A DNA stretch of 64,000 nt from an uncultured Verrucomicrobiota bacterium (GCA_964395275.1 CAYNBQ010000002.1:16731-80730); one strand, 5' to 3'. Shown: positions 10,729 through 56,320, counted from the first letter of the stretch. Program-made: numbers and translations. Notes: generated by a model from the sequence alone, not told the origin.

Positions 10729-10759
10729 GGCGCGGATCGCCGGTTGCGCCGGGCCCCCT

Positions 10760-34347: not shown

Positions 34348-34505
34348 GCTGCCGCCCCTCTTTTCTGGATCTCCGTCCGCGATGAGGCTATCGTTCGCGC
34401 GCCCGATGCCGCCGCCGACGCAGGCCGGAATCGCCGGATTCACGCGGCGGTTCGGCGCCCCGTCCGGCCCCGGGATCCGGACCGCCGAACCGAGGAGGTC
34501 GTCGA

Positions 34506-35195: not shown

Positions 35196-35299
35196 TTCCC
35201 GCCGGCGCTTCGTCAGCATACGGGCCTTTCGACCGGGTCGGCGGCCGCGATCCGGGATCGGAAATCTTTCGAACGCCCCTTTTGCCCGAGGAGAAGAAC

Positions 35300-36583
35300 A
35301 TGGCGAAAAGCATCGAGAAGGTCGGCGTCGTCGGGCTCGGATACGTCGGGCTGCCCCTGGCCGTGGCCTTCGCCCGCCACATGCCCGTGGTCGGCTTCGA
35401 CATCAGCGAAAAACGCGTCGCGCAGCTCCGCGCCGGGGAGGACCTCACCGGGGAAACCTCCGCGGACGACCTGCGCAATCCGAACCTTTTCCTCACCTCC
35501 GAGGCGTCCCGCCTGCGCGGATGCGACGCGATCATCGTGGCCGTGCCGACGCCCGTCACGCGGGCGCGGGAACCCGATCTGACCGCCCTTCGTTCCGCCA
35601 CCGAGATCGTGGCGCGGCAGATCACCCCGGGCACCGTCGTCGCCTACGAGAGCACGGTCTACCCCGGCGTCACCGAGCGCATCTGCCTGCCGATCCTCGA
35701 GGAGAAATCCGGCCTGAAACTCGGCCAATTCCATCTGGGCTACTCGCCGGAACGGATCAACCCGGGCGACCGCGAACACACCGTCGACCGGGTCGTCAAG
35801 GTCGTTTCCGCATCCGATCCGGAAACGCTCGAAACGCTGGCCGAACTCTACGGCAAGGTCGCCAAGGCCGGCGTACACAAGGCCCCGAACATCATGACCG
35901 CCGAGGCGGCCAAGGTGATCGAGAACATCCAGCGCGACCTGAACATCGCCCTGATGAACGAGTTGTCCATGATCTTCCGGCTCCTCGGGATCCGGACCCG
36001 CGACGTCCTCGACGCGGCGGCGACCAAGTGGAATTTCCACCGGTACACGCCGGGGCTCGTCGGCGGCCATTGCATCGGCGTCGATCCCTATTACCTGACC
36101 TATCGATCCCTGGAACTCGGACATCATCCCCGGGTCATTCTCTCCGGGCGGGACGTCAACGACGGCATGGGACGTTACGTGGCGGATCTGACCCTGAAAC
36201 GCCTCAGCGAGGCCGGCAAGGTCCTGAGCCGCAGCACCGCCTACGTCATGGGGCTCACCTTCAAGGAGAACGTTCCGGACATGCGCAATTCGCGCGTCGT
36301 CGACGTCATCGGCCGGCTGCGGGAGTTCGGGGTCGACGTCGTGGGCTGGGATCCCCTGCTCGCCGACGAGGACGTCCGATCCGAATTCGGGATCGAGAAC
36401 GTGCCGCTCGAGAAGATCCGGAAGTTCGACGTCGCCGTGGTCTCGTGTCCGCACGACGCCTTTCGTTCGATCGACCTGGAAACCCTGGCGCAACGCATGC
36501 AGCCCCCCGTTCTGATCGACATCAAGGGGCTCTACGACCCCGACGACGCGATCCGCGCCGGTTTCCTCTACGAATGCCTCTAG
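35300..36583 (+). CDS. UDP-N-acetylhexosamine 6-dehydrogenase (nucleotide-sugar dehydrogenase, WbpA/TviB/WecC-like)
   Basis: Frame of ORF 34382..36583 from ATG 35300, with GAGGAG RBS at 35288-35293. VGVVGLGYVGLPLAVAF is a Rossmann motif; GGHCIGVDPYYL has the catalytic Cys. Confidence 0.85.
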   Translation: MAKSIEKVGVVGLGYVGLPLAVAFARHMPVVGFDISEKRVAQLRAGEDLTGETSADDLRNPNLFLTSEASRLRGCDAIIVAVPTPVTRAREPDLTALRSATEIVARQITPGTVVAYESTVYPGVTERICLPILEEKSGLKLGQFHLGYSPERINPGDREHTVDRVVKVVSASDPETLETLAELYGKVAKAGVHKAPNIMTAEAAKVIENIQRDLNIALMNELSMIFRLLGIRTRDVLDAAATKWNFHRYTPGLVGGHCIGVDPYYLTYRSLELGHHPRVILSGRDVNDGMGRYVADLTLKRLSEAGKVLSRSTAYVMGLTFKENVPDMRNSRVVDVIGRLREFGVDVVGWDPLLADEDVRSEFGIENVPLEKIRKFDVAVVSCPHDAFRSIDLETLAQRMQPPVLIDIKGLYDPDDAIRAGFLYECL

Positions 36584-38538: not shown

Positions 38539-39255
38539 ATGCGCTACGAAACCCTGCGCAGAGCCGTCTGCGAAGCCAACCGTACGTTGTGGAAAGCCCG
38601 CCTGGCGCCCCTGACCTGGGGCAACGTCAGCGCGGCGGACGCCGACGCGGGCGTCCTGGCGATCAAGCCGAGCGGGGTCCCCTACGAAGACCTCGAACCG
38701 GAGATGATTCCCGTCGTCTCGATCCGCGACGGGACGCCGGTGGAAGGCGATCTCCTTCCCTCGTCGGACACTCCCGCGCATCGCCTTCTCTACCGCCGTT
38801 TCCCCGGAATCGGAGGGATCGCCCACGCGCATTCCCCGTATGCGACCGCCTGGGCGCAGGCCCGCCGCCCGATTCCCTGCCTCGGAACGACCCATGCCGA
38901 CGCCTTCCGCGGAGAGATCCCGGTCACCCGGCCGCTGCGGGAGGCCGAGATCGCGGCGGACTACGAAGAGGAAACGGGAAAGGTGATCGCCGAGCTTTTC
39001 GAAGCCCCCTCCGCTCCGGATCCGATGGAAATGCCGGCCGTTCTCGTGGCCTCCCACGGCCCCTTCACCTGGGGACGATCGGCCCGCGAGGCCGTCGTTC
39101 ATGCGATCACCCTGGAGGAGATCGCGCGCATGGCCGTGCTCACCTTCCGGATCGCGCACGACACGCCGCCGATCCCGGACGTTCTCCTGGAGCGTCACTT
39201 CACCCGCAAACACGGCCCGGGATCCTACTACGGGCAGCGCGGAGAAACCGGCTGA
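38539..39255 (+). CDS. L-ribulose-5-phosphate 4-epimerase / class II aldolase family (AraD/FucA-like)
   Basis: ORF 38539..39255. TWGNVSAAD...VLAIKPSGVPYEDL...PSSDTPAHRLLYRRFPGIGGIAHAHSPYATAWAQ is very AraD-like. Confidence 0.8.
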   Translation: MRYETLRRAVCEANRTLWKARLAPLTWGNVSAADADAGVLAIKPSGVPYEDLEPEMIPVVSIRDGTPVEGDLLPSSDTPAHRLLYRRFPGIGGIAHAHSPYATAWAQARRPIPCLGTTHADAFRGEIPVTRPLREAEIAADYEEETGKVIAELFEAPSAPDPMEMPAVLVASHGPFTWGRSAREAVVHAITLEEIARMAVLTFRIAHDTPPIPDVLLERHFTRKHGPGSYYGQRGETG

Positions 39256-39280: not shown

Positions 39281-41257
39281 TCAGTAGGGCAACTGGATGA
39301 CGGATTTCGAGATCAGGGTGAATCCGATCGCCAACATGCCCGTCAGTCCGAGACCGCAGGTGGCGCCCGCCGTGAGCACCGGCACGTACCGGCGCCACTT
39401 GTCGCGGCCGAACCGGGGTTGGAAGACGTAGTGGCCGAGAAGGGCCCCGGCGAAGAGCAGGACCTGGTTGTGCGGCCAGGCGCCGATCCCGGTCAGCAGC
39501 CCGTAGAAGAGGAAGAGCGGCCCGTTGAAGATCATGAAGAGGGCGTAGAGCCCCAGCCCGCCGCCGAGACCGAGGGCGATGTATCCGGGCTTGATGGCGT
39601 CGAACAGCAGCGAGTTGCCGGTGCGGGTTCCCGTCGCCCAGAGGCACTGCCAGTACGCCTGGATGCCCCACATCTTGGCCGCGTAGGGATAGGCCGCCGA
39701 CGGAATCTGGTTGAGCTTCCACAGGAAGGAACAGAAGAGGACGCTGGTGATCAGCAGCAGGGGGAAGATCAGCAGTTCCACCTTGATCAGGCTGGTGAAC
39801 TTCGTCCGGGTCAGGGTGAGTTCCCGGAAGGTCTGGGTCATCCATCCGTAGTCGGCCAGGGGGACGGGAGCGAACCAGATGGCGATGCCGTTGTACCCGA
39901 GCATCCGCGTGCTGAGGATGAACGACGCCTCCCGGAAATAGCTGAACTGCACCGGTTGCCCCGTCAGGCCGACCATCCGCGCCGAAATGTACGAGTTGAA
40001 CGGCGTCCAGACCAGGGCGTAGAAGACCAGCAGCCACCACGGAAACGTCGGAACGAGACGGTGGCAGAGGTAGACGAGCGACAGGGCCGCCGTGAGCCAG
40101 ACGCCCACCGCCAGGAGGACGGGGATGTCGCCCCGTTCCTTCGAACCCCGCTGGATCTTGCGTTTCTCGCCCCGCCGCAGGAGGGCGTGCGCCGCGGATC
40201 CGATCCCGATGAAGGCGATCGTCAGGGTCGTTCCGATCCGGATGGACATCCAGAGGTCGAGATCGTTGGCGATGTACGTCTGGATGGTGTCCATCCCCGG
40301 TTTCCACGAGGTCAGGATGTCGTGGTTGTAGAGAATGGGGTTGAGAACGATCATCGTGCCGATCGAGGCGATCGTGGCGCCGATGACCAGCCGGAAGGGA
40401 AGAACGAATCCGATCAGGATGAAGAGAAGGTTCGTCCCCAGCCCGACCAGGGCCGCCGGCAGGATTCCCTGGGTCTTCTGCGTCAGGTCGATGAAGGGGA
40501 TCGGAAGGATCTGCACCGGCTTGTTCATGATACCGCCGGTGATCGTCGGCAGCACGACGTAGACGATCCCGAAGACGATGCCGATGGCGGTGCCCGTGGT
40601 GAAGACGCGCCAGCGCCAGGTTTCCTTCGGCTCGTAGGATTCGGCCAGGGCCGTGGCGCCCTGCGCCGCGATCGGGGCCATCGGGAAGGGCAGCTGCTCG
40701 ACGTCGCTGGTGATCCGGAAGAGGGTGTAGCCGAGGCAGAACATCACGATGCGCCCGAGCAGGCCGCTCAACACGATCACGCCGATCGCCGGGAGCCATT
40801 CCCGGCTGAAGATCGTCCGCAGCAGGTAGACCGGCGAACCCCGCGGCGGGGCGATCCACGGGTTCTGGCTGAGTTCGCCGACGATTCCGAACTGCTCGGC
40901 CTGGATCGACTGCACCAGGAACTGGTTCCAGAGGATCTGGAAGAAGGGGCCGCCCGATACCACCAGCCCGCCGGCGAGCGCGAAGAGGACCACGATCTCC
41001 TGCCGGGTCAGACGCGTGAAACAACGGCGCGAGACCTCCGTGAAGAGAATCACCGTGACCCACTGCGCGGCCGTGTGCATCCCCTGTTCCGATCCCGCCA
41101 CCAGCGTCAGATAGATCGCGCCGGGCAACATGACGAAGGCCAGGAAAAGGCCCCCGATGACCGACTTCATGTTGAAGCCGTCCCGGTACGGTTCCCGGGC
41201 CTCCTGGAAGGCGGCCGACCCCCATTCCTGCAGCAGTTCTTCCTGAATCGACGGCAT
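39281..41257 (-). CDS. Polytopic integral membrane protein of unknown function (paralog of 46609..48570), third gene of the giant-protein operon
   Basis: ORF 39281..41257 (658 aa). At least 14 hydrophobic segments, rich in W, F, Y and G, with no recognisable catalytic motif. RBS GGGAGAAGAG lies 17 nt gap after the upstream stop. Confidence 0.7.
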   Translation of the reverse strand: MPSIQEELLQEWGSAAFQEAREPYRDGFNMKSVIGGLFLAFVMLPGAIYLTLVAGSEQGMHTAAQWVTVILFTEVSRRCFTRLTRQEIVVLFALAGGLVVSGGPFFQILWNQFLVQSIQAEQFGIVGELSQNPWIAPPRGSPVYLLRTIFSREWLPAIGVIVLSGLLGRIVMFCLGYTLFRITSDVEQLPFPMAPIAAQGATALAESYEPKETWRWRVFTTGTAIGIVFGIVYVVLPTITGGIMNKPVQILPIPFIDLTQKTQGILPAALVGLGTNLLFILIGFVLPFRLVIGATIASIGTMIVLNPILYNHDILTSWKPGMDTIQTYIANDLDLWMSIRIGTTLTIAFIGIGSAAHALLRRGEKRKIQRGSKERGDIPVLLAVGVWLTAALSLVYLCHRLVPTFPWWLLVFYALVWTPFNSYISARMVGLTGQPVQFSYFREASFILSTRMLGYNGIAIWFAPVPLADYGWMTQTFRELTLTRTKFTSLIKVELLIFPLLLITSVLFCSFLWKLNQIPSAAYPYAAKMWGIQAYWQCLWATGTRTGNSLLFDAIKPGYIALGLGGGLGLYALFMIFNGPLFLFYGLLTGIGAWPHNQVLLFAGALLGHYVFQPRFGRDKWRRYVPVLTAGATCGLGLTGMLAIGFTLISKSVIQLPY

Positions 41258-41274
41258 CGGCTCTTCTCCCGGAC

Positions 41275-44200
41275 TCAGGCTTCCTCTTCTTCGATCTTCC
41301 CGGAGAGGATGTCTTCGGTGCGGCTGTAGTAGATGTCCTTCTCCTTGTCAGGCAGAACGCGCCAGAGCAGGATGGTCTTGCGCAGGCGGTTGAAGAACTC
41401 CCGGTTCGTCCGGCGCCAGGCCGTCTCCTCGCCGCTGATCCGGCGGATCGCCAGGCGGAAGGTCAGTTTCCCCTCGATCACGTCCGAAGGCAGGGAGATC
41501 AGTTCCACGTCCTGTTGCACACCGAAGTCGTAGGGCGCCAGGCGGCACCGGAAGGAGATCACCGCGAGGCCCTCTTCGATATCGTCGCGGAACCGGACGT
41601 TCTCGGCGCAGAAATGCCCGACGGCCTCCTCGCGATGCGCCCGGAAATAGTCGACGAGATAGGCGTTGAAGGGATGGACCTGGTTCTCGTCGATGATGAA
41701 CGGCAGGTCGAGAATCCACCGGTCGCCCTCGGGATCTCCCACCTGCCAGGTCCGGGCGATGTCGGGGGTCGCCAGGCGGTGGGCCAGCGAGGCCGGGTAG
41801 AGACTCGATCCGATCGTCACCAGCATGACCATCGCCACCGCCAGGAAGGTCGACATCGACGAGTAGTTCAGCGTCAGGCCCGCCAGCCAGTGGTTCTTCG
41901 CCAGCGTGAAGGCGACCGCCTGCCCCAGAAGATATCCGGCGATGGCCCCCAGCACCGCGTAGACGCAGGATTCGGCGATGAACAGACTGGAGATGTGGAC
42001 CGGGGAAAGGCCGACCGAACTGTAGGTGTGAATCTCCTTCTGCCGTTCGTAGACCGATCCGAGCATCGTGTTGAAGATGATCAGTCCGGCGATGAGAAGC
42101 GGGATCGCCATCGTGCCCAGGCCGGAGAGCGAACTCGCCCCGATCGAGTTGAAAAGCATCGCCGTCTCGCCCGGCTTTTCCCCCACGTAGATCGCCAGCG
42201 ACCAGCCCGACAGCAGTTTCTCGACGAACCCCCTCAGGTCCATCGATTCGTCCAGGGGCCGCGCCGCGATCGAACGCACCGTCCCCCCGCGCATCATCAG
42301 GGTCTTGAAGGGCAGCAGCGCGACCGCCGAGGCCGGGAAATAATCGTATTCCTCGAGCGCGGCCGCGGTCGTGCCCGTCTCCTCGTCTCGACGCACCTGT
42401 TCGGCCCTCCGGACGAGGAAACTCGCCGGGGTCAGCGGATCGTCGTTCAGATCGACGATGTCGTTCCAGCCCGGCAGGCCTTCCTCCGGCTGCGACCGGA
42501 CCAGCCCGATGACCGTAAGCCGTTCCCCGAAGAGCCGTACCGCCGCCGTCCCGAGCCGGTCCGGCGTGATCCCGATCGCCTCCGCAAGGCTGTCGGGCAG
42601 GATGCAGACCTTGCGATCCCCCGGTTCGAACCATCGCCCGGCCGTCAGGGCCCGCCCCACGCCCGTGATCCGGATCTCCTCCGGCTCGAGTCCCACGGCG
42701 CCGGCGATCTGCGTCATGCGCGTCGGTTCGTCGGCGTTCGAGATCTCCATGGCCAGGTATTCTTCCGGCCGCGCCGCCGTCAGCCACGCCCGCGCCGCGA
42801 CCACGAACCCCTCTTCGAAGGCGCGCCGGAACCGGCGGAACTCCGGTTCCTCCAGCGGCGCCCAGTCGAGGTTCCGGTAGAGCACCCCCCGGTACTCCGC
42901 CTTCCAGGGAAGCGGATAGCGGTTCATCCGCAGGTATCCCTGCACGGAGACGAAGGAGATCACCGTGAAGGTCAGGAGAATCAGCGCCACGCAGGTCAGC
43001 GTCGTCTTCATCTTCCGCCGGCGCATGTAGGAAACGCCGAGATTGAACGCGGTGAGCGCCGCCCCGAAGCGGTTCACGTCGCTGTAACGCAGCGCCACCA
43101 TCCCGGATTTCAGGCGGCGCAGTTCCCGGTTGAACTTCGACATCACCAGGGAGGTCACCACCACCGCGAGGGTGATGATCACGAACCCGAGAAAGATCAG
43201 CAGGGGCGTCATGGTGATTGCGAAGGCCGGGTGCACCATCGCCAGCAGCAGGAGTACGACGGCGAAGACACCCACCACGCCCGCGATCCGCGCGCGGATG
43301 TCCGCGAAGGCGAAGACGAGCCGTTCGGTGAAGAAGGCGAAGGGCAACGCCATCGCCAGGTAGAAGATCACCCCACGGACCACGTCGTTCGAGGTGCTGA
43401 TCACGTCGGGATACACCCGCGACGCGAAGGCCCACGCGTCCGAAGTCGCTTCCACGTACCGGCTCCAGAGCCGGTCCTTTCGGTAGTTCGCCGCCCGGTC
43501 CAGCGCCGCGCGGGCCTCCCGGTGCATTCCCGCCAGAAACTCGCTCACGATGCCGTGCCGCGTCAGGGCCGCAAGACGTTCCTCGTTCAGGTACCAGAGG
43601 TCCCGGGCCACCCGTTCCGGAACCTCCTTCATGACCCCGTGGACGGGGCGGAATCCGTACGTCGAACCCTTGTGATTCTCGATCACCGTCGAGACCAGCC
43701 GTTCCACCTCCTGCCGCCGCTTGCGCCAGGCGTGGTCCGTGCCTCCGTTCCGGGCCTCTTCCACGAGCGTCCGGAACGTTTCGCGGGCCTCCCGGAGATG
43801 CCGGAGCTCCTTCTCGGTCGGCGGGACGATGCCCCGGGAAAGCAGTTCTTCGGGATCCGCGTCAAGGATCTTCGAAAACAGCTCTTCCACGGTCTTCGGC
43901 TGCAGGCTTGCCGGCGCCCTCGCCAGGGCGTCGGGACCGCTTTCCGCCCGGTCGAGGCACCCCCGGACGGCGTAGCCGAGTTCGATCAGCGGCGTGGCGG
44001 CGTTGACCAGCACGAGCCGTTTGCCGACCAGCCCGAGGCTCATCGTCAGTTTGAACCGGTCGTCCGGCCTCGTGAAGATCACCACGCAGGGTTCGATGTA
44101 CGAGGTGGCGTACCGAGGAACCATCGGCAGCGAAAACCCGAAGAACTGCGGTTCGGCGTCGGTGCGCCCGTCCAGGATCTGCAGGTACTGCAGGGAGAGC

Positions 44201-46605
44201 AGGTAGCGCGGATCGACCAGATCCACCAGGGCCGTCGCGGAACAGTCGAAAAGCACGGCCGTGATCCCGAGGGCGGATCGCGAGGGGATGTGGATTCGAT
44301 GGAAGTTGTACTTCCGGTCCCCTTCCCCGCCGAGGTCGTGGGCCATGGTCACGTGCCCGGTTTCTTCGTCCAGGAGAAAGGCCTGGAGTTCGGCGCCGGC
44401 GGTCCAGAGGAACCCGGGGAACGAGAATCCCCCGTCCTCGTCGGCGATCGTCACGTGTTCGGTGTGGATTCCGTACAGGGGTTTCGGGAATCCCCGCAGA
44501 TAGGCCCCCTTCATTCCCCGTTCGGGACGGACCATCAGCAGGGCGCCGGGAACGGGCGTGTCCGCGATGAGGCTCTTGGCCTGTTCGAGACGGACGGCCC
44601 GGCCGTGGATGGCCGGGTAGAGACGGAACTTCTCGTAGATGTGCAGGTCGATGTCGACGTCGTCGGCCAGCATCCGGCAGATCGTCGCCGCCATGCGGCC
44701 GCCCAGGAGGAGGTTGTCGAGGTTCACCTGTTCGACCGTGTCTTCCGGCGTGTCGACGAGCCGGCGCGCGTCTTCGCAGGTCGCCACCGTGACGGCGGGG
44801 ATCGCCATCGAAACGATCTCGCTTTCGAAGGCGAAGGTCTCGCTGAAGAACGATTCCGCGCTGGTTCCCCGCTGCCCCGTGATCGTCTCGGCGAAGATCG
44901 CCGCCGCCGGCACGCCGAGCGCGTCGCCGAGGCCCGGTTGCCCCATTTCGGCGTCGCCGATGATGCGGCTGCGCAGGGCCCGTCCGAGCGGAACGTATTC
45001 GCGCTGGCGGTAGATGTCGCGGTTGTCCTCGTATCCCCCCCGGATGAAGAGGCCGACCTTGGGGGAGCCGCTGGTGAGATCGAACCCCACGAAGAGAACC
45101 GGCGAACGTTTCCGGGCCCGTTCCCGTTCGGAGACCCGCCGGAACAACGGGGCGCGGGGCCGATTCTTCCTGGCCTCTTTCACCAGGCGGTCCAGCTCCG
45201 GCGTGTGCTCGTATTTCTTCTGGAGACGGACGATGGCTTCGCGCGCCTTACGGCACAGGGCGATCTCCTCGGCCGCGCCCGGCCGGTTCCTCAGCTCCGG
45301 ATCGTTCCGGAGATCGCGGATGCGCGTGCGGAGATCCGCCAGGGCGCCCTTGAGGTCCCCCATGTCCCGGAAGGCGTTGCGCACCCCTTCGTAGGTTTCG
45401 ACGTAGGCGTTGGCCCGGTCCCATTCCGTGCTGAAGGGGGGAACCGCGAGAACCTCGATTTCCCGGCGGACCTTTTCCTCCTCCTCGCTCTTCGATTCGA
45501 GGCTCTCCCGGACGTCCGCATAGAGGTTCGTGATCGCCTCCAGCGTCGGGAATTCCCGCGCCAGACGTTCGAAATCCGGCAGGCGCGCCCGCAGCATCTT
45601 CTCTTCGAGGGGGATCGCCAGCAGTTTGCGATGATGGCCGCCGTTCGTGTTGGCCTCGCTGAACCAGCGAATGAAGTTGGCGGCCCCGCTCATGCCCAGG
45701 AAATGCGCGTCGGTGAATACGAAGAGGACCGTCCGGGCCGGCGGATCCTCCGCGAACTGCCGGGCGGTTTCCAGGAGGGCCGCGGCGTTCCCGGCGGCTT
45801 CCGCTCCCGGGGCGCGGTTCGGCACCACGGAAACGGCGTCGTAGTACGCGGAGAGAATCACCCTCTCGTTCGCATGGTCCGGATCCGACCCGGGCAGCAG
45901 TCCGATGACGTTGTGCGCCGTGACCGTTTCCCAGTGCGACCCGCCCCACAATCGCGCCCGCTCGCCCCGGCGGGCGGCTTGGCGCAGCTCCTCGGCCCGG
46001 TCCGCGCGGCGCAGCATGAAACGCGGATAGTCCAGGGGCGCCGACAGAAGAGCGCGCTCCATTTCGGTGCGTTCCACCACGCGCGGGGGCAGGAAGACGA
46101 CGGCGCGGATCCCCAGTCCGGCGACCCGGACCCAGAAATCCCCGTCGGCGAAATCCTGCACGAGGATGCCTCCCTCGACGTCGGTGCCGTCGAGGTCCTC
46201 GTACGATCCGGCGTAGATCAGCGGACCTTCGATTCCCTCCCGGGGGGTCTTCGGCGGAACGCCCGCATTGGGCCATAGGGCGTCGACTTCCAGATCCATC
46301 CCGCCGACCTGCAGGCGGCCCGGCGCGTCGGGGACCGGAACGGTGACGTCGAACTCCTGCACCACGACGCGGTTCGTGCCGAGAATCTCCCCCAGTTCGG
46401 CCCGGATGTGTTCGAAGGCGTTCGAGGAACCGACCGATCCCGGCATCCTCGATTCGTCCGAGGTGAGAATCCGCAGGGTTTCCTCGATCCGGGAGCGGTC
46501 GAAGGGCGGCGCGGGGGAACCGGCCCGGGCGGGACCCGCGTTCCCGAGCAGGACCAGGATCGCCGCCGAGAGCAGCGGCAGTCGGATGAGTGCACGGTTC
46601 CTCAT
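41275..46605 (-). CDS. Giant exported multidomain protein: signal peptide + degenerate M28-peptidase-like domain + long extracytoplasmic region + TM cluster + FtsX/MacB-fold permease module + C-terminal cytoplasmic domain
   Basis: ORF 41275..46605 (1776 aa). Signal peptide MRNRALIRLPLLSAAILVLLGNAGPARA. M28-like HNVIGLLPGSDP...RVILSAYYDAVSVVPNRAPGAEAAGNAAALLETARQF...VLFVFTDAHFLGMSG with metal ligands substituted. FtsX TM1 TLTCVALILLTFTVISF, then a periplasmic domain, then MLGSVYERQKEIHTYSSVGLSPVHISSLFIAESCVYAVLGAIAGYLLG, an FtsX/MacB TM2-3 signature. Starts 3 nt after the upstream gene's stop. Confidence 0.8.
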   Translation of the reverse strand: MRNRALIRLPLLSAAILVLLGNAGPARAGSPAPPFDRSRIEETLRILTSDESRMPGSVGSSNAFEHIRAELGEILGTNRVVVQEFDVTVPVPDAPGRLQVGGMDLEVDALWPNAGVPPKTPREGIEGPLIYAGSYEDLDGTDVEGGILVQDFADGDFWVRVAGLGIRAVVFLPPRVVERTEMERALLSAPLDYPRFMLRRADRAEELRQAARRGERARLWGGSHWETVTAHNVIGLLPGSDPDHANERVILSAYYDAVSVVPNRAPGAEAAGNAAALLETARQFAEDPPARTVLFVFTDAHFLGMSGAANFIRWFSEANTNGGHHRKLLAIPLEEKMLRARLPDFERLAREFPTLEAITNLYADVRESLESKSEEEEKVRREIEVLAVPPFSTEWDRANAYVETYEGVRNAFRDMGDLKGALADLRTRIRDLRNDPELRNRPGAAEEIALCRKAREAIVRLQKKYEHTPELDRLVKEARKNRPRAPLFRRVSERERARKRSPVLFVGFDLTSGSPKVGLFIRGGYEDNRDIYRQREYVPLGRALRSRIIGDAEMGQPGLGDALGVPAAAIFAETITGQRGTSAESFFSETFAFESEIVSMAIPAVTVATCEDARRLVDTPEDTVEQVNLDNLLLGGRMAATICRMLADDVDIDLHIYEKFRLYPAIHGRAVRLEQAKSLIADTPVPGALLMVRPERGMKGAYLRGFPKPLYGIHTEHVTIADEDGGFSFPGFLWTAGAELQAFLLDEETGHVTMAHDLGGEGDRKYNFHRIHIPSRSALGITAVLFDCSATALVDLVDPRYLLSLQYLQILDGRTDAEPQFFGFSLPMVPRYATSYIEPCVVIFTRPDDRFKLTMSLGLVGKRLVLVNAATPLIELGYAVRGCLDRAESGPDALARAPASLQPKTVEELFSKILDADPEELLSRGIVPPTEKELRHLREARETFRTLVEEARNGGTDHAWRKRRQEVERLVSTVIENHKGSTYGFRPVHGVMKEVPERVARDLWYLNEERLAALTRHGIVSEFLAGMHREARAALDRAANYRKDRLWSRYVEATSDAWAFASRVYPDVISTSNDVVRGVIFYLAMALPFAFFTERLVFAFADIRARIAGVVGVFAVVLLLLAMVHPAFAITMTPLLIFLGFVIITLAVVVTSLVMSKFNRELRRLKSGMVALRYSDVNRFGAALTAFNLGVSYMRRRKMKTTLTCVALILLTFTVISFVSVQGYLRMNRYPLPWKAEYRGVLYRNLDWAPLEEPEFRRFRRAFEEGFVVAARAWLTAARPEEYLAMEISNADEPTRMTQIAGAVGLEPEEIRITGVGRALTAGRWFEPGDRKVCILPDSLAEAIGITPDRLGTAAVRLFGERLTVIGLVRSQPEEGLPGWNDIVDLNDDPLTPASFLVRRAEQVRRDEETGTTAAALEEYDYFPASAVALLPFKTLMMRGGTVRSIAARPLDESMDLRGFVEKLLSGWSLAIYVGEKPGETAMLFNSIGASSLSGLGTMAIPLLIAGLIIFNTMLGSVYERQKEIHTYSSVGLSPVHISSLFIAESCVYAVLGAIAGYLLGQAVAFTLAKNHWLAGLTLNYSSMSTFLAVAMVMLVTIGSSLYPASLAHRLATPDIARTWQVGDPEGDRWILDLPFIIDENQVHPFNAYLVDYFRAHREEAVGHFCAENVRFRDDIEEGLAVISFRCRLAPYDFGVQQDVELISLPSDVIEGKLTFRLAIRRISGEETAWRRTNREFFNRLRKTILLWRVLPDKEKDIYYSRTEDILSGKIEEEEA

Positions 46606-46608
46606 CGG

Positions 46609-48570
46609 CTACTCGATGATCAGGACTCCCTCGATCGGGAAGAAGAAGTGGATCAACAACCAGGTGAACAGAATGAAGGCCTCGCCGAGAATCAGCCCGA
46701 GCGCCGCCGGATAGAGTTTCCGCCAGAGTTTCACGCCGCCGAGCCAGGTCACGACCGACTTGATCGACCATCCGAGGAAGACCGACCACCAGTAGCGGCC
46801 CATCGTCCAGGTCGTGTTCACCACGAACCCGAGCGGATGGAAAGGCCACCAGAGAAACTGCTTCCTCATGAACACCAGGAAGAGCGTGAACAATCCTCCC
46901 AGGGCCATGTCGGGATACTCGTTTCCGCGGAAATACTGGTTGCGATAGATCGGCGTCGACACGATGCCCGCGCACCAGCGCGCGGCGCCCCGCGTCCACC
47001 AGCCCAGGTTCGGGATCGCCGTGCGGTACATCACCCAGATGGACGGGATGTGGCAGGCGAGCATCGACACCAGGATCGCCAGCGTGATCATCAGGAACAG
47101 GACCCGGCGGTTCAGCTTCGCCGTATCCCCGATCTTGAAGGCCTGGAGGACCTGGGGCTGGATGCAGGTGGCCGCATCCACCAGGTTCCAGCCGATCATC
47201 GTCAGGGAGGTCACGTTCTGCCGGGAAAGATTCTCGGAGCCGAACGGGAGGAAGGCCATCTGGTGCGGGTAGACGCCGAACCAGTAGACGAACAGGCCGG
47301 TCTCCGAAATGATGCGCGTAAGCACCATGATCGCCAGGAAATACCAGCCGAACATGATCGCCGCCAGCCCGAGCGACAACCCCGCCGCCCAGCACCACGC
47401 CAGGATCCCCGCCATCCCGAAGACGATGCCGAAAACGGCCGCGCGGTAGCTGATCGGTTCGTCGGAATCGTCGATGCGTCGATCGTTCGTGAAGGCCTTG
47501 CGCAACACCGCCAGGAAATGCTTCCGCCCCATCCAGAGGTAGAAGAGACCGATCGCGGCCACGGACCCGATGTGCAGCGCGCGGAAATACTCCCCGTGCC
47601 GTTCCGCGCCCGCCGTGATGCGCACGATCTCCTGCACGTACCGGAAGAAGTAGAAGAAGACCAGGCTGAAGCCGACCTCCCAGGTCAGCATGTAGGCGAT
47701 GCCGATCATCCCGAAATAGAAGCCGATCGAGATCCGGTTCAGGACGTTCCAGGGACGATCCGAGAAGAGGTTCGCGAACCAGCGCGGATAGAGGTTGAAG
47801 TGCGGGAAGGACGGCGCGTAGGCGTGAATCCCGTTCACCAGGTAGACGATCACGGGAATCAGGAACGCGATCCAGAAGGCCCGTTTCCGGAAGAAGGGGG
47901 AGGCGCCCGTGCGTCCCGGTCCCTCGGCGGTCATGTCCAGGGGCACCTGGGCCAGGGGGAAGAGCAGGCGCTCGTTCTCGATCCATTGCTTGCGCAGCAC
48001 CACGCAGATGCAGATCGTCACGAAAAAGATCAGGAAGAGAAAGGGCGTCCAGACCGCCAGCGGACGCACCCAGAGGTGCCAGGGGATGTCGTGGAAGCCG
48101 GCCCCCTCCGGCAATCCTTCGAAAAGCCACCGCACCACGGGGGCGTTGGGATCCTTGGAAGGCACCAGCCAGTCGCGGATGTACCGGTGAAATCCGTTCA
48201 CCGGGTCCGCCCACTGGTTCTGAGGGGTCGCGTAGTAGATCGGACCGACCAGTCCCAGGTAGAGATAGGTCGCGAACTGCTGGCCCGGGATCCCGGACAT
48301 CACCACCAGCGTGCAGTAGACGAAGAGAAGCTCGCTGCGGCGCAACCCGCGCATCCGCGTGAAACGGCGGACGAGGAAATTGATCGCCAGAAGGACGAGC
48401 AACGGATAGAGGGCCGAGCGCGGCAGATGTCCCGTGCCGATGAGGTCATAGCGCAGGAAGGCCGAGAAACATCCGGCGACGGAGATGCCGACGACCAGCG
48501 CCAGCGCGAGGACTCCCACGGCTGCGGCACGCATCAGCGAGGTGCGTTCTTCCGCGCCGCGCTCCCTCAT
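46609..48570 (-). CDS. Polytopic integral membrane protein of unknown function (paralog of 39281..41257), first gene of the giant-protein operon
   Basis: ORF 46609..48570 (653 aa). N-terminal region aligns to the other copy (FTRMRGLRRSELLFVYCTLVVMSGIPGQQF versus FTRLTRQEIVVLFALAGGLVVSGGPFFQIL). At least 14 TM segments, W/F-rich. Confidence 0.7.
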   Translation of the reverse strand: MRERGAEERTSLMRAAAVGVLALALVVGISVAGCFSAFLRYDLIGTGHLPRSALYPLLVLLAINFLVRRFTRMRGLRRSELLFVYCTLVVMSGIPGQQFATYLYLGLVGPIYYATPQNQWADPVNGFHRYIRDWLVPSKDPNAPVVRWLFEGLPEGAGFHDIPWHLWVRPLAVWTPFLFLIFFVTICICVVLRKQWIENERLLFPLAQVPLDMTAEGPGRTGASPFFRKRAFWIAFLIPVIVYLVNGIHAYAPSFPHFNLYPRWFANLFSDRPWNVLNRISIGFYFGMIGIAYMLTWEVGFSLVFFYFFRYVQEIVRITAGAERHGEYFRALHIGSVAAIGLFYLWMGRKHFLAVLRKAFTNDRRIDDSDEPISYRAAVFGIVFGMAGILAWCWAAGLSLGLAAIMFGWYFLAIMVLTRIISETGLFVYWFGVYPHQMAFLPFGSENLSRQNVTSLTMIGWNLVDAATCIQPQVLQAFKIGDTAKLNRRVLFLMITLAILVSMLACHIPSIWVMYRTAIPNLGWWTRGAARWCAGIVSTPIYRNQYFRGNEYPDMALGGLFTLFLVFMRKQFLWWPFHPLGFVVNTTWTMGRYWWSVFLGWSIKSVVTWLGGVKLWRKLYPAALGLILGEAFILFTWLLIHFFFPIEGVLIIE

Positions 48571-48692: not shown

Positions 48693-48770
48693 TGGGGTGA
48701 GCGAGGGGACTCGAACCCCCGACCTTCAGGGCCACAACCTGACGCTCTAACCACCTGAGCTACGCCCACC
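48693..48770 (-). tRNA. tRNA-His (anticodon GTG) with genome-encoded G-1 and 3' CCA
   Basis: Reverse complement reads G-GTGGGCG-TA-GCTCAGGTGGTTAGAGC-G-TCAGG-TTGTGGC-CCTGA-AGGTC-GGGGGTTCGAGTCCCCT-CGCTCAC-C-CCA. The cloverleaf has a 7-bp acceptor stem, and an extra 5' G pairs with discriminator C73, which is specific to tRNA-His. Confidence 0.85.
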
Positions 48771-48887: not shown

Positions 48888-50084
48888 TTACAACGGAAGC
48901 CGGTTCAGTTCGAACAGCGGAAGAAGGATGGCCAGCGCCACGAAAAGGAAGACGATTCCCATCACGATGATCATGCCTGTCTCCAGGATCGTGCTCATCC
49001 GTTCGGTACGGGCCTCGATCACCGTCTCCAGAAGATCGGAACCGTGCGCCAGCAGCGAGGAGACCTCTCCGCTCGCCTCGCCCGCCCTGGCCAGATGATG
49101 GATCACCGGCGGCAGGGCCCCGCTTTCCTCCAGCGCGCGGGACAGGGGGATTCCGCTGCGCACACGGCCCGAAACCCCTTCCAGCCGAGCGGCCAGCGCC
49201 CGGTTGCCCACCGACGACCGGGCGATTTCCAGCGCCTCCGCCATCCGCACGCCGCCGCTGAGCAGCGAGGCGAGCGTCCTCGCATAACGGGCCGATTCGG
49301 CGTCGGAGAGCAGACGTCCCGCCAGGGGGATCCGGAGTTTCAGCCGGTCGATCTTCTCCCGCGCCGCCGGACGCGACGCCCAGCGTCGAAACCACAGGAC
49401 CCCCGCCGCCAGAAGAAGCAATCCCGGCAACCAGGCGGACGCCGCCAGCCGGCTCAGGGCCGCCACCACCCGCGTCGGCCACGGCAGTTCCCGGCCCAGC
49501 TCCGTGAAGAGGCCGAAGATCCTCGGCGCCACGAAGGTCAACAGGAACGTGAAGACCACCGCTCCGAATCCCAGCAGGATCGCCGGGTAGAGCATCGCGG
49601 TGCGGACGCGGTCCGCAAGGCGCGCCGAGCTCTCCAGTCCCTCCGCGGCCCGGTCCAGAACGGTCGGCAAGACCGCCGCCCGCTCGCCGGCCCGGAGCAG
49701 TCCCACGATTTCCCGGGGGAAGACATCGGGGAAGGCCGCCGCCGCGCTTCCGAGCGATTCCCCGCGCGAAACCGATTCGTGCAGCGAATGAACGATCGCC
49801 CTCAGTCCGGGATCTTCCACCTGGTCGGCCAGGGCGCGCAGGGCCTGGGCCAGCGGCATGCCGGCGCGCACCATGGCCGCCAGTTGCCGCAGGGCGAGGG
49901 CCAGATCCGCCCGCCCCACCTTCGCCCGCCGCCGCACGCGGGTGCCGCGCGCGGGACGCAACTCCTCCGGAAAGAGCCCACGGCGCACCAGCGTCTCGCG
50001 CGCCGCGCGTTCGCTCGGGGCCTCCACCGTGCCCCGGGCCGGAGATCCCGCCGAATCGAAAGCTCGGTAGTCGAACGAAGGCAT
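48888..50084 (-). CDS. gspF: Type II secretion system inner-membrane platform protein GspF
   Basis: ORF 48888..50084. MPSFDYRAFDSAGSPARGTVEAPSERAARETLVRRGLFP is the canonical GspF N-terminus. Two GspF repeats and three TM helices. Confidence 0.85.
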   Translation of the reverse strand: MPSFDYRAFDSAGSPARGTVEAPSERAARETLVRRGLFPEELRPARGTRVRRRAKVGRADLALALRQLAAMVRAGMPLAQALRALADQVEDPGLRAIVHSLHESVSRGESLGSAAAAFPDVFPREIVGLLRAGERAAVLPTVLDRAAEGLESSARLADRVRTAMLYPAILLGFGAVVFTFLLTFVAPRIFGLFTELGRELPWPTRVVAALSRLAASAWLPGLLLLAAGVLWFRRWASRPAAREKIDRLKLRIPLAGRLLSDAESARYARTLASLLSGGVRMAEALEIARSSVGNRALAARLEGVSGRVRSGIPLSRALEESGALPPVIHHLARAGEASGEVSSLLAHGSDLLETVIEARTERMSTILETGMIIVMGIVFLFVALAILLPLFELNRLPL

Positions 50085-50091
50085 CGGGGCT

Positions 50092-51783
50092 TCAGTCCTG
50101 ATCCCGCATCGTCACGCGCACCACTTCCGAAAGCGTGGTCAACCCCGCCCGCACCTTCTCCAGACCGTCGTCGCGCAGGGTGCCCATGCCCCGGCGCGAC
50201 ATCAGCTCCCGCAAGGCCGCCTCCCCCTCCCCGTCGTGCACCATGCGGCGCACGTCGCGGTCGAAGGAAATCAGCTCGAACAACCCGATCCGCCCGAGGT
50301 ACCCGGTTCCGCCGCATCGGTCGCATCCGCGCCCCCGCCGCGGGCGCAGCCCGGCCGACTCCTCCGCGGTCAGGCCGATCGCGCGCGCCAGGTCGGGATC
50401 GACCGGGACCTCCTCCGCGCATTCCGGGCAGATCCTCCGGACCAGCCGCTGGGCCAGCACCGCAAGAAGACAGGCCGACAGGAGAAAGGATTCCACGCCC
50501 ATGTCGATCAGGCGCGTGATCGCCGAAACCGCGTCGTTCGTGTGCAGCGTCGAGAGCACCTGGTGTCCCGTCAGCGAGGCCCGCACCGCGATCGCCGCCG
50601 TTTCCAGGTCGCGCATCTCCCCGATCAGGATCACGTCCGGATCCTGCCGCAGCACGTGCCGTAGCCCCTGCGCGAAGGTCAGGCCGATCTGCGGTTTCAC
50701 CTCGATCTGCCCGATCCCCCCGATCTGGTACTCGACCGGTTCCTCGATCGTGATGATGTTGCGGCGCCTGTCGTGGATGTGCCGGATGGCCGAGTACAGG
50801 GTCGTCGTCTTCCCGCTGCCCGTGGGCCCCGTCACCAGGAGCAGCCCGTGGGGCATGCGCAGGAGGCGGTCGATGGTCCGGAAGATGCCTTCCGGCATTC
50901 CCAGGGCCTCGAGCGAATAGAGCATCGAGGCCGGATCCAACAGCCGCAGGACGACCCGTTCCCCGAAGGTGGTCGGCACCGTCGACACCCGGATGTCGAT
51001 CTCGCGGTCCCCGATCCGGATCCGCGCCTTGCCGTCCTGCGGAAGCCGCTGCTCGGCGATGTCCAGATCCGCCATGATCTTGATCCGGCTGACGATGCCC
51101 GGATACATCGACCGCGGCGGGGCGTTCTGTTCCTGAAGAACCCCGTCCACGCGGAACCGCACGCGCAGCTCCCGTTCGTACGGTTCGATGTGGATGTCGC
51201 TGGCCCGCGAGCGGACCGCGCGGAGAATCATCGTGTCGACGACCTCCACCACCGGCCCTTCGTCCGAACGACCGAGCAGATCCGCCTCCGTTTCGACGGA
51301 GGCGCTTCCCTCCTCCGGAAACTCCGGTCCGCTTTCCTCGGGGCTCAAGCCCGCGGCCTCGTAATAGAAACGGTTGATCGCCGAACGCAACGCCGACGGT
51401 CCCGCGACCACCACTTCGACCGGGGATTCCAGAAGAAGACCCGCGTCGTCGATCGCCGCCGTGTCCAGCGGATCCGCCATGGCCACGATCACGCGGCCAC
51501 CCGCGCGCCCGATCGGCAGGAGAAGATGTCTCCTGGCGAACCCGATCGGAATTCGCGCGACGAGTTCCTCCGGCACCGGCGCGCGATCGAGGGGCGGCGC
51601 CGGATCGAGGCGCAACGCCGCGGAAAGAGCCGATACGTACCGCTCCTCGTCCAGAACCCCCCCGGCGGCGAGCGCCTCGGGCAACCCGCCGGGCGCCTCC
51701 GCGCCCCGGCCGCGGAGCACTTCCTCGATCTGGTCGCGCGTGCAGACCCCGTCGCGCACGAGAATCTCGGCGATCGCCGACAT
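50092..51783 (-). CDS. gspE: Type II secretion system ATPase GspE
   Basis: ORF 50092..51783. Walker A GPTGSGKTTT, Asp box, Walker B VILIGEMRD, His box TLHTN, and the tetracysteine CPEC...CDRCGGTGY. Confidence 0.9.
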   Translation of the reverse strand: MSAIAEILVRDGVCTRDQIEEVLRGRGAEAPGGLPEALAAGGVLDEERYVSALSAALRLDPAPPLDRAPVPEELVARIPIGFARRHLLLPIGRAGGRVIVAMADPLDTAAIDDAGLLLESPVEVVVAGPSALRSAINRFYYEAAGLSPEESGPEFPEEGSASVETEADLLGRSDEGPVVEVVDTMILRAVRSRASDIHIEPYERELRVRFRVDGVLQEQNAPPRSMYPGIVSRIKIMADLDIAEQRLPQDGKARIRIGDREIDIRVSTVPTTFGERVVLRLLDPASMLYSLEALGMPEGIFRTIDRLLRMPHGLLLVTGPTGSGKTTTLYSAIRHIHDRRRNIITIEEPVEYQIGGIGQIEVKPQIGLTFAQGLRHVLRQDPDVILIGEMRDLETAAIAVRASLTGHQVLSTLHTNDAVSAITRLIDMGVESFLLSACLLAVLAQRLVRRICPECAEEVPVDPDLARAIGLTAEESAGLRPRRGRGCDRCGGTGYLGRIGLFELISFDRDVRRMVHDGEGEAALRELMSRRGMGTLRDDGLEKVRAGLTTLSEVVRVTMRDQD

Positions 51784-51787
51784 CCGT

Positions 51788-53796: not shown

Positions 53797-53886
53797 TGAA
53801 TCTCCGTTCTCCGAACGACGCGCCCGGAGTCGGTCCTTTCCCCGAACGATCGGTGTCCCCCACCCTAGCGGGAAGCCGAAAGCTGT

Positions 53887-55979: not shown

Positions 55980-56320
55980 GATTTCCCCCGGATCGGCCGC
56001 CGACGCGGCGTCCGAAAAGCGTTCCACAAGGATTTCCGATTCCCCCGACCGAAGCCTCCATAGCACGGGACCGACCGCGGCACAAGATCCTCCGCGGCCC
56101 GCCGTCGTCCTGCCCGGCGGCGCGCGAACCCGTCCGATCCGGCGATCCCGGAACCGCTCCCTGCTTGTCCGGGGGGCGATTCGATGGTTCGATCGGTGCC
56201 ATTCGTTCGCGATGGATCTCCCGGTCCCCGCGTCTCCCGGCGACGCCGTCGCCGGCGCAGGACGGGATCCGCCGCAAACCCAGCAACCGGGTCCGCGGGG
56301 AGAGACCCGGGTACGGAGAG

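Follow-up and report, generated by a model that had tools for sequence, protein, structure and literature searches.

A conserved three-gene module joining a giant type VII ABC-type permease with a pseudo-peptidase domain to two OPT-like membrane proteins

In characterised members of the OPT/YSL superfamily, the fold is that of a proton-coupled elevator importer. To our knowledge, bacterial OPT-family proteins are essentially uncharacterised, and no member of the bacterial branch that includes the protein C described below has been studied experimentally. Among ABC systems of type VII, all those known to us to have been characterised work outward or in the periplasm, and we know of none that aids import. 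All characterised OPT members are cation-coupled (symport) importers, NPG and KIPPR are conserved motifs of the family, and fusions of OPT proteins with peptidases occur naturally (PMC3061005). The fold of Yellow Stripe 1 (YS1) was reported by its authors to be without structural homologues (PMC9691689), and Candida Opt4, an OPT member, has been reported as an importer of peptidoglycan fragments (PMC12284242).

Representatives of both superfamilies are encoded side by side in the DNA analysed here, a stretch of 64 kb referred to as the window. The parts of this A-B-C locus are known, but their combination has not been described previously; our literature search found no paper on a giant MacB/FtsX-type protein with a dead aminopeptidase-like domain and an OPT-like pair.

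The locus and its composition

The gap between A and B is 3 nt, and that between B and C is 17 nt and contains GGGAG (Table 1). A first-pass annotation of this DNA had proposed three tightly spaced minus-strand genes for proteins of 653, 1776 and 658 aa, separated by a 3-nt and a 17-nt gap, the latter with a ribosome-binding site, and located downstream of tRNA-His and gspDEF. The open reading frames lie exactly where they had been placed, both gaps were recovered, and the ARAGORN tRNA call and the gsp gene positions agree with the proposed order. A promoter scan gave a sigma-70-like match for tRNA-His at 48855-48827.

Table 1. Features of the A-B-C locus and domains of the protein B, in window coordinates
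Feature	Position	Strand	Description
gspF, gspE, gspD	48888..54673	(-)	upstream of tRNA-His and gene A
tRNA-His (GTG)	48693..48769	(-)	ARAGORN; immediately upstream of gene A
gene A	46609..48570	(-)	653 aa polytopic membrane protein
gene B	41275..46605	(-)	1776 aa giant multidomain type VII ABC-type permease
B aa 1-28	46522..46605	(-)	putative cleavable signal peptide LLGNAGPARA/GS (cleavage at the slash), read from sequence
B N-terminal M28 part	45646..46521	(-)	ligands replaced: H by Y254, D by A (E269 adjacent), EE by H301-F
B aa 321-520	45046..45645	(-)	charged insertion splitting the M28 fold; from composition
B aa 521-655	44641..45045	(-)	C-terminal half of the M28 fold; last zinc-ligand His replaced by D618
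B aa 656-1065	43411..44640	(-)	periplasmic region without detectable family or solved-structure similarity
B aa 1066-1170	43096..43410	(-)	three long extra TM helices preceding the FtsX-type core; AF2, hydropathy
B aa 1171-1219	42949..43095	(-)	basic cytoplasmic segment, amphipathic 'elbow' helix, then TM1 of the MacB-type core
B aa 1220-1494	42124..42948	(-)	beta-rich periplasmic domain of MacB/LolC type between TM1 and TM2
B aa 1495-1612	41770..42123	(-)	FtsX domain TM2-TM4, conserved coupling-helix motif SVYERxxEI...G..P
B aa 1613-1776	41278..41769	(-)	family-specific cytoplasmic alpha/beta domain, four or five strands and C-terminal helices
gene C	39281..41257	(-)	658 aa OPT/YSL-fold transporter homologue, strongly conserved

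The coding signal is strong in A, B and C, with GC3 values of 0.89, 0.87 and 0.91, respectively. The overall GC of A and C (approx. 0.63-0.64) is 3-4 points below that of the neighbours, as the first-pass annotation had sensed, but this slight deficit falls entirely on codon positions 1 and 2, and GC3 is no lower than in the neighbours. Neither a repeat of the tRNA-His 3' end (att) nor any integrase or mobile-element gene was seen in the window. With native GC3 and no att repeat, the three genes carry no island signature; lower GC and the tRNA-His site thus lose their value as hints of foreign origin, the more so as the tRNA is linked to the module in only one other locus. Envelope genes are abundant around the locus (gspDEF, LpxC-FabZ, Wzm/Wzt, a sulfotransferase, and glycosyltransferases). 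Neither the operon nor the whole window encodes a MacB/LolD-type ATPase or a second FtsX protein, and the sole ABC ATPase in the window is of the Wzt type.

Domain architecture of the three proteins

Within the exported region of B, Pfam Peptidase_M28 gives a partial match (aa 232-313, 8.8e-10, 39.1 bits vs. a cut-off of 21.3), and a profile of the B family matches 2ek8 (8.6e-25), the transferrin receptor (1.4e-10), nicalin (2.8e-10), and nicastrin (1.2e-4). Alignment to YwaD (6hc6) and 2ek8 places Y254, A270, H301-F302, and D618 at the zinc and catalytic positions H, D, EE, and H; this comparison covered the His, Asp, Glu, and last His ligands (all but the fourth, the Asp179 equivalent) and the catalytic Glu. 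The replacement motifs YYD[SA], PGAE, [AG]H[FH], and DTPxDT are conserved among 32 B homologues, only two of which keep the first M28 His. Judged from its sequence, the PA/M28 domain of B is non-catalytic, a predicted pseudo-peptidase of the receptor type, and the earlier pseudo-M28 assignment stands, with the ligands replaced family-wide by another conserved set. These positions hold polar residues of their own (Y, D, E, H, D) and may form a different metal or ligand site. The segment that splits the fold (aa 321-520) consists of 38% D/E/K/R and is probably helical or coiled-coil. The region that follows the domain (aa 656-1065) has no match in Pfam, NCBIfam, or PDB; its C-terminal end is among the best-conserved parts of the family. 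Indeed, in an exhaustive search, which yielded 1360 relatives, the best stretch was query residues 670-1028, i.e., B aa 990-1348.

The membrane core of B matches Pfam FtsX (aa 1500-1608, 9e-14, 52 bits vs. a cut-off of 25.5) and has the four-helix type VII layout, in which TM1 and TM2 flank a large periplasmic domain and TM2 and TM3 are joined by a coupling helix; no other stretch of the FtsX domain is as strongly conserved as the motif of this helix. In the AF2 model, the extra TM helices occupy model residues 6-37, 43-64, and 74-109, and the elbow helix and TM1 occupy residues 119-136 and 138-158, with a positive-inside sequence. B is thus the permease component of an ABC mechanotransmission transporter of type VII (MacB/LolCE/FtsX class), which bears out the earlier recognition of an FtsX/MacB-type permease in an operon that lacks an ATPase. 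B is not, however, an equivalog of the cell-division protein FtsX, MacB, or LolCE, as its scores lie far under the respective NCBIfam cut-offs (27.3 vs. 250, 24.8 vs. 966, and 16.5 vs. 362). Its cytoplasmic C-terminal domain may be helix-grip, KA1-, or START-like.

The family of C comprises more than 2100 homologues or clusters, which are often labelled 'peptide transporter' in public records. Pfam OPT (PF03169) is matched by 6 of 32 family members (best 9.6e-14), whereas the C protein of the window has no match at E<=0.1, lacks NPG (only NPI occurs, at residue 306), and has no KIPPR-like motif. When its AF2 model (pLDDT 81, pTM 0.81) was searched with Foldseek, barley YS1 (HvYS1, 7wst/7wsr) alone was significant (1.7e-11, probability 1.0, TM 0.62-0.69; for 7wst_A, TMq 0.62 and TMt 0.67), the next match having E>0.02. 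On the strength of this model and its exclusive match, C can be assigned confidently to the OPT superfamily as a divergent member with the OPT/YSL fold. This is a confident match to a characterised transporter; a GT-C glycosyltransferase fold, which had been considered, is rejected for C, with no GT-C structure among its Foldseek matches. The 14 transmembrane segments proposed earlier are an approximation: the model has approx. 15 long helices plus several shorter or hairpin helices, and a crude hydropathy scan gives 10 strong peaks (the OPT criterion being about 16 transmembrane segments). Across phyla, the mean column identity of C is 56%, and approx. 120 columns are invariant or nearly so.

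A Pfam search for DUF families in the two proteins of approx. 650 aa identified A as DUF6785 (1.5e-134, 449.7 bits vs. a cut-off of 25) plus DUF6784 (1e-27, 96.7 bits vs. 26.4), as are all 82 of its homologues. Similarity between A and C is undetectable by BLASTP (E 0.48); hhalign of A against the C family gives a probability of 94.7% (E 5.6e-8, 461 columns) and a common E(R)LxFPxA motif. At the profile level, A and C are remote paralogues, and from homology to C alone we infer that A is a divergent OPT-like protein; it contains neither NPG nor KIPPR. Thus, the first-pass annotation was right about the kinship of the outer proteins but not in confining it to the N-terminus, and its statement that no named family is represented holds only in part, as A belongs to two DUFs and C, by its YS1 fold match, to the OPT superfamily.

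Conservation of the module

Adjacency of B and C, often with A, was found in at least 10 little-studied phyla, including Armatimonadota, Abditibacteriota, Planctomycetota, Latescibacterota, and Gemmatimonadota. Of the 53 loci that have enough flank, 26 carry B directly upstream of C; among fully flanked loci, B is at most 10 kb away in 31 of 41 and A in 17 of 41. At many loci, the B and C genes overlap or stand close together, often with fewer than 35 nt at the junction. The complete A-B-C order recurs in L003, L007, L008, L009, L018, L035, and L089, the last of which is the closest relative and the only one in which tRNA-His precedes the module. C genes with and without a linked B form separate clades, and in L001 a B-C pair occurs together with a second pair, in which A follows a B-like core. 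Members of the C and A families also occur without B (alone, as tandem pairs, or beside glycosidases or other genes), and none of the 362 retrieved proteins is a B-A or B-C fusion.

Genes for an ATPase of the LolD/MacB class and for a small FtsX permease adjoin the module in 13 related loci, while an ATPase is absent nearby from most; the orphan MacB-type ATPase that had been suspected has counterparts beside the module in related genomes, although none in the window. No conserved hydrolase gene, and no conserved periplasmic adaptor, outer-membrane partner, or lipoprotein carrier, accompanies the module across related loci, and the envelope-gene neighbourhood of the window is not kept in other genomes. 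PPIase/SurA-like genes adjoin OPT-like genes in L064 and L086. Taken together, the synteny supports A-B-C as a conserved, functionally linked module, as had been proposed, and speaks against chance juxtaposition. The module is widespread, as an ordinary housekeeping unit would be, but it is neither annotated as a module nor characterised.

Possible functions and related systems

The explanation that we favour, if only tentatively, is a coupled system of the inner membrane in which B is an ATP-driven periplasmic receptor and mechanotransmitter that serves C and A as OPT-type importers. The energy for B would come from a LolD/MacB-class ATPase whose gene lies elsewhere in the same genome, which is plausible because such ATPases adjoin the module in related loci. 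The repurposed peptidase pocket would bind a periplasmic, peptide-bearing substrate, ATP-driven motion of the periplasmic domains would present or release it to C and A, and these would import it (oligopeptides or cell-wall-derived peptides) via the proton gradient. The 'remodelling or export' suggested in the first-pass annotation is disfavoured because C is of the OPT type and all characterised OPT members import (PMC3061005). As both families occur without B, C and A are presumably able to work alone. Against capture and import stand the missing ATPase in the window and near most related loci, the lack of B-C or B-A fusions among the retrieved proteins, the outward or periplasmic action of every characterised type VII system, and the lack of an OPT score and motifs in this C; moreover, a nutrient importer would seldom show identity across phyla as high as that of C, which points to a more constrained, housekeeping-type role.

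More doubtful is a single physical machine, assembled from B and the OPT-like proteins and energised in two ways, with the dead aminopeptidase as substrate receptor. Here, a direct link would join a type VII ABC mechanotransmitter, driven by ATP, to an elevator transporter driven by protons, for transport or extraction; we know of no organism with a machine of this kind. If it exists, its function, in the envelope or in nutrition, would be a conserved one and might be essential for Armatimonadota, Abditibacteriota, Planctomycetota, Latescibacterota, Gemmatimonadota, and related phyla.

An unlikely alternative is export for envelope biogenesis, in which C and A would flip or export an envelope precursor across the inner membrane and B would extract it from the outer leaflet by means of ATP, as modelled by LolCDE and LptB2FGC, and hand it on via its periplasmic arm. 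The characterised relatives of the B core (MacB, LolCE, HrtB, FtsX, and YtrF) all act at the outward-facing side of the membrane, and the extreme conservation of C would be expected for a housekeeping step; the envelope-rich surroundings of the window, the PPIase/SurA-like genes beside OPT-like genes, and, tentatively, a START/Bet v1-like fold of the cytoplasmic domain of B (a fold that is often lipid-binding) point the same way. However, these surroundings are not kept elsewhere, a dedicated adaptor, outer-membrane partner, or carrier is not conserved beside the module, and the characterised OPT members are all importers (PMC3061005).

It is also rather unlikely that the genes are co-regulated but mechanistically independent, with A and C as ordinary OPT-type nutrient importers and B as a separate MacB-like pump or extractor; that their operon merely serves a shared physiology, e.g., scavenging of proteinaceous material, is no more probable. 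The B-less occurrences of A and C and the lack of fusions fit such independence, and the ATPase and small FtsX permease, where present, could complete an ABC transporter with B and without C. Nonetheless, the B-C adjacency and its short or overlapping junctions are kept across phyla, co-inheritance is clade specific, pairs are duplicated in L001, and co-regulation alone rarely preserves gene order over such distances.

A regulator resembling FtsEX-EnvC, in which the dead peptidase and the charged helical insertion would switch on a periplasmic hydrolase under ATP control, is improbable, as is the accompanying step in which C and A would take up released muropeptides or peptides. Both combine an FtsX-type core with a coiled-coil-like segment and a peptidase fold that is degenerate and catalytically dead, and the reported import of peptidoglycan fragments by Opt4 (PMC12284242) would suit the uptake step. 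However, FtsEX-EnvC consists of separate proteins with a dead fold of the LytM (M23) type and an adjacent ftsE, whereas B is a single polypeptide with a dead M28 fold and no linked ATPase or amidase gene; the module has no conserved hydrolase gene, and B scores 27 bits against the 250 of the FtsX equivalog. That the genes came together by chance or as an island acquired horizontally, as the position directly 3' of a tRNA gene and the lower GC of A and C might have suggested, is effectively refuted by GC3, the missing att repeat, and the widespread synteny.

Through conserved genetic coupling of an OPT protein to a type VII ABC system, with a pseudo-peptidase receptor in cis, both superfamilies would gain a new functional class. 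Two Pfam DUFs would also be assigned a role, as would a family of giant proteins that numbers more than 1300 members without a name. It may also explain peptide acquisition or envelope building in several poorly understood, environmentally abundant phyla. Direct testing is possible, as the module is present in the cultured Abditibacterium utsteinense LMG 29911.

Within the context of known systems, the exported domain of B resembles the transferrin receptor, nicalin, and nicastrin, which serve eukaryotic membrane complexes as receptor or gatekeeper subunits, in having a PA plus M28 fold that has lost its metal ligands within a membrane protein. Unlike these, B is bacterial and carries the domain in cis with a transporter core, and its M28 fold is interrupted by a 200-aa charged insertion. 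Compared with other type VII ABC systems (MacB, LolCDE, FtsEX, HrtBA, YtrEF, and YbbAP), B has no ATPase in its operon or window and adds approx. 1050 exported residues (the dead PA/M28 domain, the charged insertion, and the region of unassigned similarity), three TM helices, and an extra cytoplasmic domain; it is also kept beside a secondary-transporter homologue, an arrangement unknown for any characterised type VII system. With OPT/YSL transporters (TC 2.A.67; PF03169; HvYS1 7wst), C shares the YS1 fold and matches no other, A being the more divergent paralogue. C differs from them in its identity to YS1 of 13-14%, in the missing Pfam OPT match and NPG and KIPPR motifs, in its length of 658 aa without the long eukaryotic loops, and in being genetically tied to an ABC-type permease.

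Layout and surroundings of the locus

The three minus-strand genes of the module, here A, B and C, have exactly the positions assigned to them in the first-pass annotation; A and B are separated by 3 nt, and B and C by 17 nt with GGGAG inside. Since a class II aldolase gene converges on C from downstream, the transcription unit is A-B-C, to which the tRNA-His might possibly belong as well. The lower GC content previously noted by eye holds for the totals of A and C, which lie 3-4 points below those of the neighbours. It had been attributed only partly to hydrophobic codon use; however, the deficit is confined to codon positions 1 and 2 and is thus accounted for by hydrophobic residues, with GC3 (A 0.89, B 0.87, C 0.91) equal to or above that of neighbouring genes. 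Nothing suggests a foreign origin.

The LpxC-FabZ fusion next to gspD combines LpxC (aa 33-301) with a FabA/FabZ-like dehydratase (aa 334-457), and the secretin GspD has approx. 330 residues without a Pfam match before its N0 domain. The presence of a sulfotransferase within the polysaccharide-export cassette suggests a sulfated surface glycan. In the 733-aa ORF, the dehydrogenase domains start only at residue 313; this ORF is probably over-extended, or its 5' part represents another gene.

Coordinates of the module and of neighbouring features in the window
Feature	Position	Strand	Remark
Polysaccharide-export cassette	8348..11644	-	
Sulfotransferase	8348..9481	-	export cassette
Wzt-type ATPase with Wzt_C domain	9436..10728	-	export cassette
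ABC-2 permease	10760..11644	-	export cassette
Second ABC-2 permease	29611..30396	+	
ORF with UDP-glucose/GDP-mannose dehydrogenase domains	34382..36583	+	733 aa
Distinct high-GC3 ORF	34506..35195		within span of the 733-aa ORF
Class II aldolase gene	38539..39255	+	downstream of C
C	39281..41257	-	ORF, 658 aa
B	41275..46605	-	ORF, 1776 aa
A	46609..48570	-	ORF, 653 aa
tRNA-His	48693..48769	-	
Promoter-like site	48855-48827		upstream of tRNA-His
gspF, gspE, gspD	48888..54673	-	beyond tRNA-His
Secretin GspD	51788..54673	-	961 aa
LpxC-FabZ fusion	54657..56066	-	single 469-aa ORF directly upstream of gspD

Family assignment of the three proteins

Protein A matches DUF6785 (1.5e-134) and DUF6784 (1e-27) in Pfam; neither name was found in the searched literature, and the exact window proteins are unnamed in public sources. 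The similarity between A and C is not significant by BLASTP. Profile-profile comparison aligns the two families over 461 collinear columns (probability 94.7%, E 5.6e-8), including a common E(R)LxFPxA motif, so that A and C are, judging from these profiles, remote paralogues across most of their length.

Window C has no match in Pfam or NCBIfam. Its homologues comprise more than 2100 clusters with approx. 48% identity across phyla; many are labelled 'peptide transporter', some have weak PF03169 matches, and 6 of the 32 aligned family members reach Pfam OPT individually (best 9.6e-14). When the AlphaFold2 model of C, built on the 32-member alignment (pLDDT 81.3, pTM 0.81), was compared with the PDB by Foldseek, it matched barley Yellow Stripe 1 (YS1; 7wst/7wsr) alone (E 1.7e-11, probability 1.0, TM 0.62-0.69), all remaining matches having E>0.02. 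Neither A nor C had a match among PDB sequences at the sequence or profile level; for C, YS1 emerged by fold comparison alone. As a proton-driven symporter, YS1 operates by an elevator mechanism; its fold is, according to the YS1 authors, without structural homologues (PMC9691689). Because YS1 is the only fold match and family members score with OPT, C is placed in the OPT/YSL superfamily, of which it is, as modelled, a divergent bacterial member; the NPG and KIPPR motifs are absent from it. At the time of the family review, there was no biochemically characterised bacterial OPT protein (PMC3061005).

Protein B has, as judged by eye, a signal-peptide-like start, which is followed by a PA+M28 domain. 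Among solved structures, the B-family profile matches aminopeptidase 2ek8 (8.6e-25) and YwaD (2.7e-23) as well as non-catalytic receptors, i.e., the transferrin receptor (1.4e-10), nicalin (2.8e-10), and nicastrin (1.2e-4). In a residue alignment with YwaD/2ek8, B has other residues at the canonical metal-binding and catalytic positions (AHxDS replaced by AYYDA, GANDxxSG by GAEAAGN, GAEExG by DAHFLG, and HTPED by DTPED). The replacement residues are themselves kept in 32 homologues from other genomes (YYD[SA], PGAE, [AG]H[FH], and DTPxDT), which points to a putative binding site that has been repurposed instead of decaying. A 200-residue insertion, 38% charged, splits the M28 fold, and aa 656-1065 have no match in Pfam, NCBIfam, or PDB-profile searches. 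The structure model of aa 1061-1776 (pLDDT 85.6) starts with three long additional helices, followed by an amphipathic elbow helix and TM1, a periplasmic domain rich in beta structure, TM2-4 (with a short coupling helix), and an alpha/beta domain at the C-terminus. Foldseek relates this model to MacB (1.6e-10) and also to LolC/E, Spr0695, YtrF, HrtB, and FtsX; by its fold, the core of B is a type VII ABC permease. Within the FtsX domain, the family conserves the motif formed by TM2, the coupling helix, and TM3 most strongly, which argues that an ATPase presumably still docks at this site.

A word-indexed homologue search returned only 4 full-length relatives of B, whereas exhaustive HMMER with the family-specific middle (aa 321-1349) returned 1360 cluster representatives, 727 of them at E<=1e-30; the notion of B as a 'rare giant' was therefore discarded. 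Most representatives are 1450-1900 aa long, and the family is large and unnamed, the sole member name found being 'FtsX-like permease family protein'. The longest homologues (P0276, P0285, and P0310; 2769-3053 aa) carry 1100-1240 extra N-terminal residues, in which nothing but Big_5 Ig-like domains was recognised and which are uninformative.

Linkage in other genomes and the ATPase partner

Scanning species-representative genomes with the C-family alignment gave at least 564 positive genomes from groups including Armatimonadota, Abditibacteriota, Planctomycetota, Latescibacterota, Gemmatimonadota, Hydrogenedentota, Nitrospiraceae, Desantisbacteria, WS1, and Zipacnadia; Abditibacterium utsteinense LMG 29911 (Abditibacteriota) is a cultured carrier, with B and C at about 222.6-230.1 kb of NZ_NIGF01000003.1. 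For synteny, A, B, and C HMMs were run over the ORFs of 80 loci. Where the upstream flank was 5.5 kb or longer (53 loci), B immediately precedes C in 26, and among loci with both flanks (n=41), B is found within 10 kb in 31 and A in 17. The order A-B-C recurs in seven related loci (L003, L007, L008, L009, L018, L035, and L089), with C...A-B instead in Latescibacterota and Gemmatimonadota. Between the B stop and the first conserved C codon lie no more than 32 nt in 11 loci; in another 17, this distance is 95-190 nt. In a clustering of C sequences, B-linked clades stand apart from B-less clades, and the B-linked clusters include no B-less locus with full flanks except L067, in whose nearest relatives (98% identical) B follows C at a distance of over 6 kb, near the end of the examined flank. 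One contig (L001, 2094-13814) carries two consecutive pairs: an M28-FtsX giant (1538 aa) followed by a C-like protein (654 aa), and a B-like protein (1005-1008 aa) that lacks M28 and matches only the B membrane core (HMM positions 801-1366), followed by a DUF6785 protein (657 aa). Among 362 retrieved proteins, there was no Rosetta-stone protein fusing B to A or C.

Without B, the A and C families occur as tandem DUF6785 pairs, beside a GH2 glycosidase, or beside PPIase genes, and the neighbours of B-less C genes include no consistent partner. Tandem copies without B are seen in L087 (9001-12657), with a pair of adjacent DUF6785 genes, and in L030 (6009-10235) and L031, each with a pair of adjacent C-family genes. 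SurA/PpiD-like PPIase genes (Rotamase domains, approx. 550-570 aa) adjoin OPT-like genes in two unrelated loci (L064, 8245-9951; L086, 11060-12715), in one case preceding a C homologue, in the other following a DUF6785 gene. A HEAT and TPR repeat protein of approx. 350 aa, encoded immediately upstream of B-less C in L054 (8667-9737) and L082 (1870-2904), may be an alternative partner of the stand-alone C clade.

The 64-kb window contains no MacB/LolD-type ATPase, second FtsX, or further A-like or C-like gene, and its one clear ABC ATPase was rejected as the partner of B, being of the Wzt type and accompanied by an ABC-2 permease. In 13 related loci, the genes adjoining the module include those for an ABC ATPase and a small, atypical FtsX permease. 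The ectodomain of these permeases is SLBB, PqqD-like, or minimal, and the highest-scoring models for the ATPases are LolD, MacB, DevA, and FtsE, with scores that stay below equivalog cut-offs. The permease in L046 (13382-14518) has a PqqD-like ectodomain, and that in L048 (13435-14730) has SLBB domains, which are otherwise typical of polysaccharide-export proteins. These observations would fit a LolCDE-like heteromer in those lineages, in which B and the small FtsX combine with two ATPase subunits, and an ATPase for B encoded elsewhere in the present genome.

Possible function and relation to known systems

From the identities of the parts and the conserved linkage of A, B, and C, we infer a coupled import system, a reading held tentatively and at somewhat short of an even chance. 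B would draw its power from a LolD/MacB-class ATPase whose gene lies elsewhere, its dead-peptidase receptor and MacB-type periplasmic domain would capture and present a periplasmic peptide-bearing substrate, and OPT-fold C and A would import this substrate via the proton gradient. Import is favoured because characterised OPT members are importers without exception and natural OPT-peptidase fusions exist (PMC3061005), and because the receptor domain of B derives from a peptidase. The stand-alone paralogues of C and A, which imply that both are transporters in their own right, were also counted for import.

The main rival is an export or envelope-biogenesis machine, as proposed in the first-pass annotation. 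Known type VII ABC systems all act outward, C is unusually conserved (mean column identity of 56% in the 32-member alignment), and envelope genes surround the module in the window; however, this neighbourhood is not kept in other genomes, and such a machine appears unlikely. Ranking next, and also doubtful, is the explanation that A/C and B are independent but co-regulated transporters. An FtsEX-EnvC-like hydrolase regulator, with import of the product, is improbable. Chance juxtaposition or a mobile island is effectively excluded; the idea of an island at the tRNA was dropped given the native GC3, the lack of a second copy of the tRNA 3' end (att repeat) within the window, and a tRNA linkage confined to the closest relative (L089).

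In the searched literature, no description was found of the giant B architecture, of the two OPT-superfamily branches represented by DUF6785 and C, or of their conserved pairing, and searches for the FtsX+M28+OPT combination and for type VII orphan permeases gave nothing relevant. Because the module is widespread and present in a cultured species, it is directly testable. All components of the module fall in known superfamilies, and it appears that the conserved pairing of B with OPT branches is its most notable undescribed element.
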